Shown here one piece after another: positions 10,141 through 15,630 of a stretch of 52,425 bases of DNA. Every line of letters begins with the position of its first letter. Positions within the stretch are counted from its first letter, which is position 1. The DNA is from Patescibacteria group bacterium (lineage in GTDB: Bacteria; Patescibacteriota; Minisyncoccia; UBA6257; GWB1-50-10): the NCBI GenBank assembly GCA_038065455.1, contig JBBTQX010000009.1, forward strand, positions 1-52,425, given 5' to 3'. The notes under the pieces were generated by a model. The model saw only the letters and a program-made list of their open reading frames with translations. It made no database searches and was not told where the DNA came from. Made by a program: the position numbers and the translations under genes.

Positions 10141-10274
10141 ATAGCGAAAATGCCGCGATTTAAGCCCGCTAAAGCGGGTTTTTCGTTTGTTTTTGACCCT
10201 AAAATCTGATACAATTAAAGAGTAAATTAGACAGGAAAAATCAGCCCCAAGGCTGCATTTTCTTCTTGATTCCA

Positions 10275-13200
10275 ATGGCAAAAAACAAGGAAAACAAACC
10301 GAAAAAAGAGGTTTCTTATGACGCCAAAGACATCTATGTTCTTGAAGGTTTAGAGCCTGTTCGCAAGCGACCGGGAATGTATATCGGCTCCACGGGAGTC
10401 GAGGGATTGCACCATCTCATCTGGGAAGTTATGGACAACTCCATCGATGAGGCGATGGCCGGCTACGCCAAAAACATCCGCATCGAAATATTGAAAGGGG
10501 AGCGCATCGTGGTTGTGGACGACGGCCGCGGTATTCCCGTGGATATTCATCCGCAGACGAAGAAATCCGCGCTCGACACCGTCTTGACCACGCTTCACGC
10601 GGGCGGCAAGTTCGGCGGAGAATCATACAAAGTTTCGGGCGGTTTGCACGGCGTGGGCGTCTCGGTCGTGAACGCGCTTTCCAAATGGCTGAAAGTCGAA
10701 GTCTACCGGAACGGCGCGGTCTATACCCAGGAGTATGAGCGGGGCAAGCCGAAGTTCAACGTGAAAAAAGTCGGCACTTCGAAGCATACCGGCACGAAAG
10801 TCATCTTTGATGCCGATCCGGTAATTTTCCAAAAAATCGAGTACGACCGCAAAAAAATCCTGGACCATCTGCGCCAGCAAAGCTATCTCACGAAAGGCGT
10901 CCGCATCAGTTTCGTGGATGACCGCGACGAACATCCGTTCTACTACGGCTTTTATTTCGACGGCGGTTTGAAATCTTTCATCCATTATCTCATCGGCGAC
11001 GAGCCGACGCTCCAAGATGAGCCTTTTTACGCACACAAATTTTACGAAAATATAGAAGTGGAAGTCGTCTTCACATATGCGGACGACCAGGAAGCGAAGG
11101 AATTAAGTTTTGCAAACAACATCCATACGCCGGACGGCGGCATGCATTTGACGGGTTTGCGCTCGGCGATGACCCGCGTTTTGAACGATTATGCGCGGAA
11201 GGAAAATTATCTGAAAGAAAGCGAGGAGAATATTACCGGCGATGATATTCGCGAAGGCCTGGTCTCGATCGTTTCCATAAAGCTTCCCGAGCCGCAGTTC
11301 GAAGGCCAGACTAAGGCTCGCTTGGGCAATCCCGAAGCGCGTACCGCTGTCGAGATGGTGGTGAGTGAAACACTCAAAGAATTTTTGGAAAAGCACGGCT
11401 CGGACGGACGGAAGATAATCGAAAAGAATCTTTTAGCTGCGAAGGCCCGCAAGGCCGCTAAGGCCGCCAAAGACACCGTTCTCCGGAAAGGCGCTTTGGA
11501 GGGATTGACTCTGCCCGGCAAGCTCGCCGACTGTTCTTCCCGCAAAGCCGAAGACTCGGAATTATTCATAGTCGAGGGAGATAGTGCTGGGGGCTGTTGG
11601 TTTGGAAAAACTGAAGTTGCGTTGACGGACGGCAGAAATTTATCCTTCGAAAAAATAGTTGAAGAACACGATCAAGGTAAGAAAAATTATTGCTATACAA
11701 TAAAAAATAATGGCGACATTGGAGTTGAGTTGATAAGAAATCCGAGGAAGACGAAAAAGAATGCGGAAGTAATTAAGGTCATTTTGGACAATAACGAGGA
11801 GTTAATATGCACCCCCGATCACAAATTTATGCTGGCCGATGGCTCATATAAAGAAGCTCAAAACCTTCAGAAGAGCGACTCTTTGATGCCTTTGTATCGC
11901 CAATACTCGAAATTGGGTAAAAAAATCACGATCGAAGGATATGAGATGGTTTTTGATCCGGCGGAAAAGAGATGGATCTTCACCCATCTTCTCTCGGACA
12001 AATACAATTTGGAAAACGGGAAATATTCCGCGGTTAGCGGTTATTATCGCCATCACAAAGATTTCAACAAGTTGAACAATGATCCGGAGAATATTATGCG
12101 TTTATCCAATATGGCCGAAAAATTCTTGGAATTTTACAACTCCAACGAAGAATACCGGAAAAAGAACAATGAATTATTGGATGAAAGCCAGCGGGAATAT
12201 TGGAATAGTGAAGAAAACAGAAAAATCCAAGCGGAGCGGGTGAGGAATTTCTTTGCCGCGCATCCGGAGAGAGTAAGAGAATTTTCGGAACTCGCACAAG
12301 CTCAATGGCAGAATGAAGATTTGCGTAAATGGCGCTCGGAAAAGACCAAGGGTCAATGGACGCCGGAGTTCCGTGTGAAAAGGAAATACACTTATAACGA
12401 AACCTACCGTGAAAAAGCGATGCGGGTTTTGCGCGATTTATACGATCGTACCGGCGCGATTTCAATCGAGAAATACGACGAATTCCGCCGGAAGACGAAT
12501 GACAAATCCCTCCTGCGTTTTGATACCATTCTGAACAGGTTCTTCGAGGGTAGGAAGGAACGTCTTTTCGATGCGGTGATTCACTATAACCATAAAATTA
12601 TTCGCATCGAGAAAATGTCGGAAAGAATCGACGTCTACGATCTGGAAGTACCTGGCACGCACAATTTCGCTCTCGCAAGCGGCATATTCGTTCATAACAG
12701 CGCCAAGCAGGGCCGCGACCGGCACACTCAGGCCATCCTGCCTTTGAAGGGCAAGATCTTGAATGTGGAAAAATCCCGAATAGATAAGATGCTCGTGAAC
12801 AAGGAAATCCGTTCGCTCGTGATTGCCTTGGGTACCGCTATCTCGGATAACTTCGATATCGAGAAGCTCCGTTACCACAAAATAGTTTTGATGACTGATG
12901 CCGATGTGGACGGCGCGCACATTCGTACTTTGCTTTTGACGCTTTTCTTCCGCTACTTCCCGAAGATAATCGAGAATGGCCATTTATATATTGCCCAGCC
13001 GCCGCTTTTCCAATTACAGAAAGGGAAGGAGAGCCACTACGCGTACAGCGATGCCGAACGCGACAAGATCCATAAACAGATGGGGAGCGAGGGCATCAAC
13101 GTCCAGCGCTATAAGGGTCTCGGCGAAATGAATCCGAGCCAGCTTTGGGAAACTACGATGGATCCGGCGAAAAGGATATTGAAGCAAATCAATGTGGAAG

Positions 13201-13310
13201 ACGTGGTTGCGGCCGACAAGATGTTCGATATCCTGATGGGCGAAATCGTGGAACCCCGCAAGAATTTCATCCAGGCGCACGCTTTGACCGTGAAGAATCT
13301 GGATATCTAG
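10275..13310 (+). CDS. gyrB: DNA gyrase subunit B (intein-containing)
   Basis: EPVRKRPGMYIG, LHAGGKF, GGLHGVG, VEGDSAGG, PLKGKILN, TDADVDG, QRYKGLGEM; 643-aa extein after intein removal. Confidence 0.97.
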   Translation: MAKNKENKPKKEVSYDAKDIYVLEGLEPVRKRPGMYIGSTGVEGLHHLIWEVMDNSIDEAMAGYAKNIRIEILKGERIVVVDDGRGIPVDIHPQTKKSALDTVLTTLHAGGKFGGESYKVSGGLHGVGVSVVNALSKWLKVEVYRNGAVYTQEYERGKPKFNVKKVGTSKHTGTKVIFDADPVIFQKIEYDRKKILDHLRQQSYLTKGVRISFVDDRDEHPFYYGFYFDGGLKSFIHYLIGDEPTLQDEPFYAHKFYENIEVEVVFTYADDQEAKELSFANNIHTPDGGMHLTGLRSAMTRVLNDYARKENYLKESEENITGDDIREGLVSIVSIKLPEPQFEGQTKARLGNPEARTAVEMVVSETLKEFLEKHGSDGRKIIEKNLLAAKARKAAKAAKDTVLRKGALEGLTLPGKLADCSSRKAEDSELFIVEGDSAGGCWFGKTEVALTDGRNLSFEKIVEEHDQGKKNYCYTIKNNGDIGVELIRNPRKTKKNAEVIKVILDNNEELICTPDHKFMLADGSYKEAQNLQKSDSLMPLYRQYSKLGKKITIEGYEMVFDPAEKRWIFTHLLSDKYNLENGKYSAVSGYYRHHKDFNKLNNDPENIMRLSNMAEKFLEFYNSNEEYRKKNNELLDESQREYWNSEENRKIQAERVRNFFAAHPERVREFSELAQAQWQNEDLRKWRSEKTKGQWTPEFRVKRKYTYNETYREKAMRVLRDLYDRTGAISIEKYDEFRRKTNDKSLLRFDTILNRFFEGRKERLFDAVIHYNHKIIRIEKMSERIDVYDLEVPGTHNFALASGIFVHNSAKQGRDRHTQAILPLKGKILNVEKSRIDKMLVNKEIRSLVIALGTAISDNFDIEKLRYHKIVLMTDADVDGAHIRTLLLTLFFRYFPKIIENGHLYIAQPPLFQLQKGKESHYAYSDAERDKIHKQMGSEGINVQRYKGLGEMNPSQLWETTMDPAKRILKQINVEDVVAADKMFDILMGEIVEPRKNFIQAHALTVKNLDI
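11595..12698 (+). mobile_element. Intein (368 aa) with HNH-type endonuclease remnant
   Basis: EGDSAGG|CWFGKTEV..., block B CTPDHKF, C-terminal VYDLEVPGTHNFALASGIFVHN|SAKQ; internal HHKDFNKLNNDPEN. Confidence 0.95.
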
Positions 13311-13458: not shown

Positions 13459-13486
13459 TTGACATTTATAATTGATTTGTTATGAT
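13459..13486 (+). promoter_or_regulatory. rplJL promoter
   Basis: TTGACA-16-TATGAT with extended TG. Confidence 0.7.
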
Positions 13487-13495
13487 AGTTTCAAT

Positions 13496-13569
13496 CCGTA
13501 GACAGTAGGCAGCCGAAAGGCAGAGGTCCTACCGAGGGAAAAAGCTTATGCTTTTTAACGCGTCTGCGG
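13496..13569 (+). ncRNA. Ribosomal protein L10 leader
   Basis: CCGTAGACAGTAGG...CCTACCGAGG...GTCTGCGG kink-turn-type leader directly upstream of rplJ. Confidence 0.85.
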
Positions 13570-13605
13570 CCCAAAAGGTCGTATTTTTATTTCTCGAACA
13601 AATTC

Positions 13606-14103
13606 ATGAAAACAAAAGAACAGAAAAAAGAGCAGGTTAAATTGGGAGAAGCGGAACTCGCCAAAAGCGAGACCGTCGTCATTACCGATTTCAACGGTCT
13701 TACGGCCAACAATATGAACGCGTTCCGGAAAGCGGTGCGCGGGCTGGGCGGCGTCGTGATGGTGATAAAGAAAAGACTTCTGAAGCTTGTTTTTGCCGCG
13801 AAGGGGATTGAGTTCAATCCCAAGGATTTCGCGGGTCAGGCGGGCGTCGTTTTCTCTCCGAAAGATATTGTGGAAACGGCGGGTGTCATCTACAAATTCG
13901 GCAAGCCTTTCGCCAAGAAAGACATCTTCAAAATCCTGGGCGGTTTTGAGATAAAAGCGAAGAAATTCATGGCGGGAGAAGAAGTGAAGATGATTGGACA
14001 GCTGCCCTCCAAAGAAGCGCTTCTCGGCCAGTTGGCTTTCATGCTTACCGTGCCAATTAAGAAACTACTCTTCGTAATGGATGCAAAAGTTAAAAAACAA
14101 TAA
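13606..14103 (+). CDS. rplJ: 50S ribosomal protein L10
   Basis: KTKEQK, TDFNGL, VIKKRL, LPSKEALLGQL; precedes rplL. Confidence 0.93.
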   Translation: MKTKEQKKEQVKLGEAELAKSETVVITDFNGLTANNMNAFRKAVRGLGGVVMVIKKRLLKLVFAAKGIEFNPKDFAGQAGVVFSPKDIVETAGVIYKFGKPFAKKDIFKILGGFEIKAKKFMAGEEVKMIGQLPSKEALLGQLAFMLTVPIKKLLFVMDAKVKKQ

Positions 14104-14144: not shown

Positions 14145-14510
14145 ATGGATAAATTCAAAGATATAATTGAAAAAGTAGAGAAGCTCTCGGTCCTGGAATT
14201 GGCCGAGCTCGTAAAGGCGCTCGAAGAAAAGTTCGGCGTCTCGGCCGCCGCGATGTCGGTGGCGGGTCCCGCGGCCGGTGCCGCGGCCGGAGAAGAGAAG
14301 TCCACCTACAACGTGGTCTTGAAGGCGGGCGGAGACCAGAAGATCAATGTCATCAAAGCGATTAAGGAAGCTACGGGCCTCGGCCTCAAGGAGTCCAAAG
14401 ATCTCGTGGATGGCGCTCCCAAGACCATCAAGGAAGGCTTGAAGAAAGAAGAAGCGGATGAGTTAAAGAAAAAACTCGAAGACGTTGGAGCCACCGTGGA
14501 GTTGCAATAA
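14145..14510 (+). CDS. rplL: 50S ribosomal protein L7/L12
   Basis: [48 protein letters not shown]. Confidence 0.98.
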
Positions 14511-14529
14511 AAGGCGAATGTGTTAATAT
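14502..14529 (+). promoter_or_regulatory. Promoter for a leaderless small ORF
   Basis: TTGCAA-16-TAATAT with extended TG; ATG 7 nt downstream. Confidence 0.55.
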
Positions 14530-14536
14530 TTTTCAA

Positions 14537-14617
14537 ATGGTCAGATTAACCTTATCGATATTGGTATTGCCGATTATCGTCCTCCTTTTGCCGGAGCGGA
14601 AGGTTAGTTTTGCATAA
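14537..14617 (+). CDS. 26-aa Leu/Ile/Val-rich peptide (attenuator leader or type I toxin-like)
   Basis: MVRLTLSILVLPIIVLLLPERKVSFA*; 14 of 26 residues are branched-chain; flanked by a promoter and a terminator. Confidence 0.55.
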   Translation: MVRLTLSILVLPIIVLLLPERKVSFA

Positions 14618-14639
14618 TCCATAGAATATCGACACTGAA

Positions 14640-14680
14640 CAAAACCAACCTTCCCTTAATAGGAAGGTTGGTTTTTTCTT
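14640..14680 (+). terminator. Intrinsic terminator with an alternative antiterminator pairing
   Basis: AAAACCAACCTTCC-CTTAATA-GGAAGGTTGGTTTTTT; its 5' arm is also complementary to GGAAGGTTAGTTTTG at ~14598-14612. Confidence 0.85.
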
Positions 14681-14891
14681 CAGCGTGTGGGGAAAATAGA
14701 TTGTCCCCGCGGCACCTTGAAAATCAAATCACCGATTTCATCAGCAAGCGTCAAATATGCCCATTGGATTGACGGAACTTTCTCCCATAGGCTGAAAACA
14801 TCGGCCAGGAGAACATCAAAGAGGAGGCGAGTCCATAAGATTCGCCTTTTCCTTTTGGATTGCAATCGAAAGAATATTTGTTTATGCTGAA
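14679..14891 (+). ncRNA. Candidate multi-hairpin structured RNA
   Basis: Five consecutive hairpins; the non-Watson-Crick pairs I checked read as G-U on the + strand. Confidence 0.35.
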
Positions 14892-14899
14892 TTTTAAAT

Positions 14900-14971
14900 G
14901 GGCGTTTAGTTCAGTGGTAGAACGTTGCATTCACATTGCAAAGATCGCTGGTTCGATCCCAGCAACGCCCA
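14900..14971 (+). tRNA. tRNA-Val(CAC)
   Basis: GGGCGTT/AACGCCC acceptor, TTGCA-TTCACAT-TGCAA anticodon arm, GTTCGATCC; upstream TTGCAA-17-TATGCT promoter; no encoded CCA. Confidence 0.95.
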
Positions 14972-15078
14972 CAAACGGAATAAATCCGGTTTCTCTTGAC
15001 GTTGAAAGCAATTAGTGAAAAACTCTTAGGAGTTCTTAAAATCACTTTTGTTAATAACTAAAAAAGAAAGGGTTAAAA

Positions 15079-15630
15079 ATGAACCTATATGTTCCTACCA
15101 AAATGTTCTTCACAAAAGGCGTTGGGCGACACAAGGATTATCTGCAATCATTCGAGTTGGCTCTTCGGAACGCCGGCATTGAGAAATGTAATCTCGTAAC
15201 CGTTTCGAGTATTTACCCTCCGAAATGCAAGCGTGTTTCGCCTGCCGATGGAATCAAATTTCTTGAAGCGGGTCAGATAACGTTTGTTGTTATGGCTAGG
15301 AATGCCACAAACGAACCAAATCGTTTGATTGCCGCTTCTATTGGCGTTGCTCAAGCAGCGGACGATTCCCAATATGGTTATCTTTCGGAACATCATCCGC
15401 ATGGAGAGACCGACGAGAAAGCCGGCGAATATTCCGAAGATCTCGCCGCAACCATGCTCGCGACGACGCTTGGCTTGGAATTCGATCCCAATCTAGCATG
15501 GGATGAACGGGAAAAGCATTTCAAAATGAGCGGGAAGATATTGAAGACTTTTAATATCACCCAATCCGCGCAAGGGGATAAGGATGGCAAATGGACAAGT
15601 GTGGTAGCCGCTGCGGTTCTTCTCCTTTGA
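15079..15630 (+). CDS. pdaD: Pyruvoyl-dependent arginine decarboxylase
   Basis: [24 protein letters not shown] (Ser-Ser self-cleavage site), [15 protein letters not shown]. Confidence 0.9.

Follow-up and report, generated by a model that had tools for sequence, protein, structure and literature searches.

We have examined a stretch of 52,425 nucleotides (nt) from a Patescibacteria group bacterium of the lineage Minisyncoccia (GenBank assembly GCA_038065455.1, contig JBBTQX010000009.1, forward strand), and describe a short element that lies directly behind rplL, the gene for ribosomal protein L7/L12. The whole stretch is referred to as the window. It is contig C9 of a genome, designated G000, that comprises 654 kb in 10 contigs. 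The element carries a promoter-like site, a short open reading frame (ORF) and a set of alternative RNA hairpins, and is probably a complete but orphaned ribosome-mediated attenuator. The family to which it belongs would control a gene that we label gene X, an ATP-grasp-like ligase gene found downstream of the family's leaders. Gene X has been deleted from G000, and the element now most likely serves only as the terminator of the rplJL transcript.

Anatomy of the element behind rplL

The genes rplJ (13606-14103) and rplL (14145-14510, forward strand) were identified with Pfam, the latter by the Ribosomal_L12 and Ribosomal_L12_N models. A promoter-like site at 14502-14529 on the same strand consists of TTGCAA (14502-14507), a 16-nt spacer and the -10 hexamer TAATAT (14524-14529), which is preceded by TGT in the manner of an extended -10. 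The site agrees with the consensus at 8 of 12 positions and was missed by our consensus promoter scan because the threshold of the scan was 9 of 12. An ATG at 14537 follows 7 nt past the end of the -10, so that the leader mRNA would be leaderless or nearly so. The ORF that it opens (14537-14617, forward strand, with its stop codon at 14615-14617) encodes a 26-amino-acid peptide, MVRLTLSILVLPIIVLLLPERKVSFA, that contains 7 Leu, 3 Ile and 4 Val, with 12 Leu/Ile/Val residues falling within codons 4-18. Transcripts of rplL enter the element directly, since no hairpin lies between the rplL stop codon and the short ORF.

Four segments of the forward strand, delimited by folding, form the alternative pairings. 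Segment 1 (14538-14557, codons 1-8), which includes GATTAACCTT at 14544-14553, pairs with segment 2 in the minimum-energy fold. Segment 2 (14597-14613; 14598-14612 by narrower bounds) occupies the final codons of the ORF, reaches to within 2 nt of its stop codon and is an imperfect copy of segment 4; its partner is either segment 1 or, as an anti-terminator, segment 3. Segment 3 (14640-14654) is the 5' arm of the terminator, and segment 4 (14662-14675) is its 3' arm, followed by a T-rich tail (TTCTT) that extends the feature to 14682.

For the 180-nt region the folding energy is -54.9 kcal/mol (z = -4.1), which none of 200 shuffles equalled, and its minimum-energy fold combines the 1:2 pairing with the 14-bp 3:4 terminator. 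The 1:2 pairing was calculated at -13.6 kcal/mol as a duplex and -22.9 kcal/mol as a domain, the 2:3 pairing (14 pairs) at -17.5 to -19.4 kcal/mol as a duplex and -16.0 kcal/mol as a domain, and the 3:4 stem at -20 to -22 kcal/mol. The 2:3 duplex reaches -17.5 kcal/mol, compared with -6.5 kcal/mol when the upstream part was put through 200 dinucleotide shuffles (z = -5.75, with p at its floor of 0.005), and among 629 terminator-like hairpins in G000 between 0 and 5 have an equally strong upstream complement, depending on the bounds chosen for segment 3. The element has the mutually exclusive pairings (1:2, 2:3 and 3:4) and the U-tract terminator of an attenuator, and the Leu/Ile/Val codons of the short ORF form a run of candidate sensed codons. 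A sequence-only reading of this DNA had proposed the promoter-like site with its closely spaced ATG, the Leu/Ile/Val-rich ORF, the three pairings and the T-tailed terminator; each of these is present, and the structure exceeds chance by shuffling.

Homologue in G001 and deletion of gene X

When 40 relatives were searched by DNA, rplL was present in 23 (24 of 41 genomes with G000 included), and beyond rplL only one relative, G004, matched the window. G004 belongs to the same genus as G000, as does G001, in which a homologue of the element was recognized. Directly after rplL in G001 are TTGAAC, 17 nt, TAGAAT, a further 8 nt and an ATG, which opens a leader ORF of 26 amino acids (MYQSNLSILLVLISLIGRRVGLASIV) that keeps the core LSIL and in which 13 of 26 residues are Leu, Ile or Val. 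The terminator stem of G001 differs from that of G000 at two positions, and segment 2 of G001 bears, as judged by eye, a change that matches one of them (an A-to-G change that faces a U-to-C change in segment 3). With 14 pairs, its 2:3 duplex reaches -20.3 kcal/mol, and the minimum-energy fold of G001 is the 2:3 form. By RNAalifold on the G000 and G001 sequences, the main 1:2 helix has 11 pairs, of which 3 differ in both partners. The stems were otherwise compared genome by genome, because MAFFT sets segment 3 of the two leaders one column apart and pair counts between them were not possible. In G001, as in the family leaders described below, the ORF is conserved and the stems covary as they would in an attenuator, within samples that are small and related.

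The leader of G001 is followed by approximately 100 nt, a GAAGGAGG ribosome-binding site and gene X. Gene X runs off its contig and resumes on a second G001 contig, which holds the end of gene X, a hairpin, a tRNA-Val, an ORF of the TspO family and an arginine decarboxylase gene. The corresponding part of the window contains what remains of this arrangement. The stretch at 14767-14905 aligned to G001 from the 3' end of gene X through the tRNA-Val with a score of 66, whereas the maximum of 200 shuffles was 36. Within it, on the forward strand, are a remnant of the last codons of gene X (14767-14795, with the TGA stop codon at 14793-14795) and a second T-tailed hairpin (14821-14851), the former gene X terminator. 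The tRNA-Val(CAC) gene (14900-14972, forward strand) reads identical to that of G001 when compared by eye; it also lies downstream of gene X in G001 and stands outside the switch. The interval at 14683-14766 is, by a weak alignment to G001, probably what is left of the 5' untranslated region (UTR) of gene X. Gene X was not found anywhere in the G000 genome, and no gene lies between 14682 and the tRNA-Val. The G000 leader has no regulated gene behind it because gene X was deleted, which also explains why the sequence-only reading saw no biosynthetic gene downstream. We class the element as an orphaned relic rather than a working attenuator for this reason, that no regulated gene lies directly downstream of it.

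In G004 the loss has gone further. Its rplL (90% identical) joins window positions 14791-14891 (99% identical) directly, with window positions 14516-14790 missing, and the join connects 14509 to 14791. The hairpin at 14821-14851 now follows rplL in G004, where it is the only hairpin after that gene, because the leader was also lost there. G002 and G003 have a simple hairpin and a tRNA-Val after rplL. G004 additionally carries, at L002:1290-1391, a different tRNA-Val(CAC) and, immediately behind it, 30 nt that duplicate the 3' end of the tRNA-Val of the G000 type; this mosaic suggests that a replacement or an integration took place at the tRNA gene. The G000 form was present in all four groundwater runs in which it was sought (X6, X8, X9 and X11), with no variants inside the element; a 413-nt contig with the element is identical in X8, X9 and X11, and a longer X6 contig shows no differences. 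The joined form resembling that of G004 occurs beside the G000 form in three of the four runs, X6 having only the G000 form. The simplest history that would account for these arrangements is one in which G001 is intact, G000 has lost the body of gene X and G004 has lost the leader too. Three stages of decay would then be visible in one genus: G001 keeps the intact unit, G000 is without the regulated gene and G004 has lost everything. As a caution, a switch that looks perfect may turn out to be a relic. The element has probably persisted so far because rplJL transcripts are ended by its terminator.

The sequence-only reading had inferred a branched-chain amino acid starvation switch that controls an RNA output, which our results do not support. 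The element could in principle be a still-working, stand-alone device in which Leu/Ile/Val-dependent read-through controls the second hairpin, the tRNA-Val and the pyruvoyl arginine decarboxylase gene (15079-15630, by Pfam), or in which the leader RNA or peptide acts in trans. All of its parts are intact in a streamlined 654-kb genome, it is without differences across the contigs of the four groundwater runs, and trans functions of a free attenuator RNA and peptide are reported for Sinorhizobium trpL (PMC6614838, PMC7298713). We nonetheless consider a stand-alone switch unlikely, as the regulated gene has demonstrably been deleted, a second terminator-like hairpin stands between the element and the tRNA-Val, and G004 lost the whole element while the same neighbours were kept. 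The tRNA-Val, moreover, appears to have its own promoter-like site, read by eye at 14865-14893 (TTGCAA, 17 nt, TATGCT), which ends approximately 11 nt upstream of the tRNA, matches the consensus at 8 of 12 positions, is conserved in G004 and is absent from the list of the promoter scan. A DNA search of G000 found no second copy of the element, which is single-copy, and no obvious target was found in the genome.

Regions downstream of rplL were also searched more widely. A blastn search with the element against 100 such regions (G000, 19 loci of relatives and 80 metagenome loci), 29 of which are cut by contig ends, found no further copy. Besides the self matches (G000 and L008), it returned only matches of 12-22 nt at E values of 0.07-0.95, and the homology between G000 and G001 was itself not recovered. 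Of the 100 regions, 81 extend for at least 120 nt, and most of these 81 have a simple terminator 10-60 nt after rplL. This last observation is what would be expected if the element were a plain rplJL terminator accompanied by a chance ORF and chance upstream complementarity, as is its place directly behind rplL, where rplJL transcripts must be stopped. Such a coincidence is scarcely credible given that the G001 homologue precedes a gene, that the same architecture recurs before gene X in unrelated genomic contexts (described below) and that the 2:3 duplex (z = -5.75) is in the top 1% of its own genome.

Two other features of the window are of a different kind. An L10-leader-like RNA lies upstream of rplJ at 13478-13598 (Rfam, 39.9 bits, under the gathering score of 44), and the gyrB ORF (1014 amino acids, window 10266-13310) holds an intein, with Pfam Intein_splicing at residues 453-811 between the GyrB and Toprim domains.

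Leaders upstream of gene X across Patescibacteria

Gene X encodes a protein of approximately 300 amino acids. An AlphaFold model based on an 11-sequence alignment (predicted local distance difference test 80, predicted template modelling score 0.84) was compared to known structures with Foldseek, which matched E. coli YjfC (7uk6; E 1.4e-7, template modelling score 0.49) and, further, the human and yeast glutathione synthetases (2hgs, 1m0w) and a putative gamma-glutamylcysteine synthetase. The match to Pfam ATPgrasp_ST had an E value of 0.0088, below the cut-off, and a PDB profile search gave DcsG at E 0.13. No family name was obtained from Pfam, NCBIfam or the defence-system models of PADLOC; the ESM Atlas returned only "hypothetical protein" clusters with ATP-grasp leads, and the 9 matches of a word-indexed search were all unnamed or "hypothetical". 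The product is therefore described here as ATP-grasp-like, and is predicted to be a carboxylate-amine ligase of the ATP-grasp type. Gene X is rare, occurring in 3 of 401 genomes sampled in the order. The gene directly 3' of it encoded an amidohydrolase in 10 of 10 tested loci, namely an M20 peptidase in six, a class-II glutamine amidotransferase (GATase)-like protein in two and a class-I GATase/C26 protein in two; M20 follows gene X in G244 and GATase_4 in G187. As judged from these loci, the two genes are a conserved ligase-hydrolase cassette, restricted mostly to Patescibacteria.

A pattern scan of species-representative genomes identified 32 gene X loci across Patescibacteria, and with G001 and G244 there are 34 distinct loci (one of them, L144, is from the same genome as G187). 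In G244 and G187, a short ORF and a T-tailed hairpin again precede gene X. The same was found at 24 of the 32 scanned loci, where a T-tailed hairpin just upstream of gene X stands 18-58 nt past the end of an ATG-initiated ORF of 17-45 amino acids. With G001 and G244 included, the count is 26 of 34, the ORF ends 15-58 nt before the hairpin, and an anti-terminator is often present. At four further loci (L117, L127, L128 and L134) a leader candidate lies at a greater distance upstream, ahead of the gene that opens a longer operon, which brings the total to 30 of 34; no leader candidate was found at L119, L124, L126 or L142.

Several loci have individual arrangements. Two tandem leader-attenuator units precede a single gene X at L118:2030-2281, one with a peptide that contains CKFWHYTFLNGR and the other with a peptide that contains CQYWFTYHFLKKGGISVA; a separate CCUCCC/GGGAGG terminator belongs to each unit. 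The order leader candidate, M20 peptidase, gene X is seen at L128:905-1094 and L127:1190-1220, and the L128 candidate peptide has a Met run (KMMMVMMN) instead of an aromatic cluster. At L135:657-2402, from Saccharimonadales, the leader and gene X also lie behind rplJL, with an L10 leader at 657-820 (61.7 bits), the end of rplL near 1794 and the start of the leader ORF at 2257; this is a second such lineage and may be a coincidence. Segments 2 and 4 are often GGAGG-like, and thus Shine-Dalgarno-like, and segment 3 CCUCC-like (L118, L121, L132, L137, L139, G000 and G001), which may just reflect a preference for stable G-C stems.

Four properties that lay outside the criteria by which leaders were selected were then compared with controls, namely the anti-terminator, the promoter spacing, the residue content and the reading frame. 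Of 28 leaders, 16 have a 2:3 complementarity stronger than that of 200 dinucleotide shuffles at p<=0.05, and 10 at p<=0.01. A -10 that ends 4-12 nt before the ATG, in a promoter with at least 9 of 12 matches, was found at 10 of 28 leaders versus 1.2% of 1915 control ATGs, and with at least 8 of 12 matches at 16 of 28 versus 4.8%. The leaderless feature that was noted in the window accordingly recurs in the family. Trp is encoded in 24 of 28 leaders versus 258 of 700 control ORFs (Fisher p = 2.5e-7), and the densest 8-residue window holds 4.5 Trp/Tyr/Phe/His/Met residues versus 2.5 in control ORFs. This cluster is specific to the reading frame, with 4.5 residues versus 2.2 and 2.8 in the other frames (Wilcoxon p = 2e-5 and 1.5e-4). 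Pair counts over four Saccharibacteria leaders gave 96% pairing for the 3:4 helix, with 3 compensatory pairs (slid controls at most 69%), and 89% for the 2:3 helix, with 2 compensatory pairs (slid controls at most 64%). The attenuator logic that the sequence-only reading had ascribed to the element on its anatomy is supported, as the same architecture recurs with covarying stems in G001 and, with unrelated sequence, before gene X across Patescibacteria.

The recurrence also bears on what the short ORF is for. It could encode a functional peptide, either a substrate or precursor of the ATP-grasp ligase (carrier-like, or akin to a RiPP, a ribosomally synthesized peptide that is modified post-translationally) or a membrane peptide or type I toxin. 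In most loci the ORF directly precedes the ATP-grasp enzyme and a peptidase, the peptides of G000 and G001 are hydrophobic, and in RiPP clusters a leaky terminator commonly stands behind the precursor gene. The stems, however, encode the C-terminal half of each peptide, which changes as they change, G000 and G001 share only 7 of 26 residues although they belong to one genus, and many peptides of the family (e.g. those of L129, L140 and L146) are non-hydrophobic. At the candidates located further upstream, the ORF precedes a gene other than gene X. Furthermore, a peptide function would leave the 2:3 complementarity without a role, the element occurs once in the genome, its sequence revealed no antisense partner, and gene X has no matches to defence-system models. 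A functional peptide is thus decidedly unlikely.

It is also conceivable that the terminator and anti-terminator are real but are set by a protein, a tRNA or a metabolite, with an incidental ORF. The alternative 2:3 and 3:4 structures need no ribosome, and translation of the leader is only inferred. On the other hand, the ORF recurs with its stop codon at or beside segment 2, the residue enrichment is frame-specific, the -10 boxes lie at a fixed short distance from the ATG, and Rfam families have no matches at the leaders (20 family loci were searched). Control without a ribosome is very improbable on these grounds, and we retain the reading of a ribosome-mediated attenuator family to which the G000 element belongs as an orphan.

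Switch model and comparison with known systems

According to the proposed model, window positions 14502-14682 would constitute a unit with its own promoter, a leaderless 26-amino-acid ORF and two alternative states, the 1:2 pairing with the 3:4 terminator or the 2:3 anti-terminator. On arrival at the final codons or the stop codon, a ribosome would cover segment 2, allowing 3:4 to form and transcription to end at approximately 14680. If the ribosome were held within the Leu/Ile/Val-rich codons 1-17, segment 2 would sequester segment 3 and transcription would read through. Among the 16 leaders with p<=0.05, segment 2 lies within -28 to +17 nt of the stop codon in 14 (the exceptions are L129 and L118b), and a terminating ribosome would for this reason cover it. 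A footprint-mask model, in which a 30-nt ribosome footprint was applied to a transcript ending at segment 3, predicted for the family that segment 3 remains sequestered until the A site has passed the aromatic cluster, with release, for instance, right after the Trp codon in L120, L133, L138, L141 and L123. In G000 the modelled pairing of segment 3 falls from 0.9 to 0.1 past codon 17, the end of the IIVLLL run, and in G001 it drops past codon 14. The modelled position of the ribosome relative to segment 2 is that of an attenuator, provided that control is kinetic.

Several observations weigh against this interpretation. In a full-leader equilibrium model of G000, the terminator has a probability of 0.8 at every ribosome position. 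The equilibrium model is likewise flat for L115, L122, L146 and G244, and was taken as uninformative on kinetics; kinetic control must be assumed because the model shows no ribosome effect. In a truncated-transcript model, the pairing of segment 3 stands at 0.92 with no ribosome present, and since it is already paired, the expected default of termination when there is no translation was not reproduced. Translation of the leader ORF and conditionality of the terminator are, in consequence, deduced from sequence and models. The similarity of the G000 and G001 leaders is low (81 of 161 aligned columns and 7 of 26 peptide residues identical), and the alignment of 14676-14766 to the G001 5' UTR is weak, with a score of 32 that was reached by 3 of 200 shuffles. 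At 12 of 28 leaders the 2:3 complementarity was not above that of shuffles. The G000 and G001 leaders have no Trp-centred cluster like that of other family members; owing to this and to the low identity, membership of the G000 element in the family rests on position, architecture and the link through G001. Family leaders were chosen by eye from a script listing, those from kindred genomes are non-independent, and the samples are small. The start codons of some (L116, L118a and L135) are doubtful: a later ATG fits the promoter better, and L135 would then lose its Trp.

We infer, with these points in mind, that the ORF of the element is or was translated, that amino-acid supply is the signal and that there is no regulated target at present. 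Most members of the family have Trp/Tyr/His/Phe/Met clusters rather than Leu/Ile/Val, and from the codon content it is plausible that the sensed signal in this genus is the supply of Leu, Ile and Val. A more far-reaching interpretation holds that leaderless attenuators throughout Patescibacteria gauge scarce aminoacyl-tRNAs (mostly Trp/Tyr/His/Phe/Met, and Leu/Ile/Val here) and thereby switch on the ligase-amidohydrolase cassette, with the G000 orphan kept as a still-working copy that acts as a read-through gate for rplJL or as a source of trans-acting RNA or peptide. In this complete form, the proposal seems to us quite unlikely.

The main interest of the element is that it leads to a family of leaderless attenuators and to the ligase-hydrolase cassette that they would regulate in Patescibacteria. 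If the attenuator reading is true, these bacteria monitor aminoacyl-tRNA supply directly through leaderless leader ORFs, and the induction of the uncharacterised cassette when certain amino acids are scarce offers a first functional handle on it. The best Rfam matches over the element were PyrR at 22.3 bits (gathering score 54) and, on the minus strand, Phe_leader at 19 bits (gathering score 55), both under the threshold. Full-text literature term searches gave no report that joins leader peptide, attenuation and Patescibacteria. A leaderless attenuator family was accordingly not found, in Rfam or in these term searches, for the ultra-small, amino-acid-auxotrophic Patescibacteria.

Ribosome-mediated attenuation is textbook knowledge for amino-acid operons of Proteobacteria and some other phyla. 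In the enterobacterial ilvGMEDA, ilvBN and leu attenuators, a Leu/Ile/Val-rich leader ORF is combined with 1:2, 2:3 and 3:4 segments and a T-tailed 3:4 terminator. The G000 element resembles them in ORF composition, in its pairings and in a stop codon placed such that a terminating ribosome would cover segment 2. It differs in that its ATG is leaderless and not led by a Shine-Dalgarno sequence, and in that its host, a member of Minisyncoccia, is without the biosynthetic operon. The target of the family is an ATP-grasp-like ligase gene with an amidohydrolase gene, its leaders carry mostly Trp/Tyr/His/Phe/Met clusters, the G000 copy is without its target gene, and no sequence or Rfam relationship to the ilv/leu attenuators was found.

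Type I toxin mRNAs encode short hydrophobic peptides and are highly folded, and the sequence-only reading had offered a toxin-like membrane peptide as its alternative. This candidate is not supported: the element is single-copy, its peptides are not conserved, many peptides of the family are polar, and no antisense RNA was found by sequence. Unlike that of type I toxins, the architecture in G000 is explained by terminator/anti-terminator logic.

Attenuation of rplJL in B. subtilis involves the L10 leader (Rfam RF00557; PMC4538822), which shares with the G000 element a transcription attenuation tied to the rplJL operon. The L10 leader, by contrast, is upstream of rplJ, is controlled by protein and is unrelated to the element behind rplL. 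Among the systems compared, the only precedent for an RNA output is Sinorhizobium trpL, from whose attenuator the trans-acting RNA rnTrpL and peptide peTrpL are reported to be released as free products of the terminated leader (PMC6614838, PMC7298713). Sinorhizobium trpL still controls trpE(G), whereas a trans function of the G000 element would be only hypothetical. In mycobacteria, leaderless polycysteine short ORFs are reported to be cysteine-responsive attenuators (bioRxiv 10.1101/834739). These belong to another phylum and sense another residue, and the G000 element has in addition an explicit intrinsic terminator and anti-terminator. The two systems share a leaderless short ORF as the first cistron, the translation of which tunes, or in our case would have tuned, an operon to the supply of the amino acids that it encodes.

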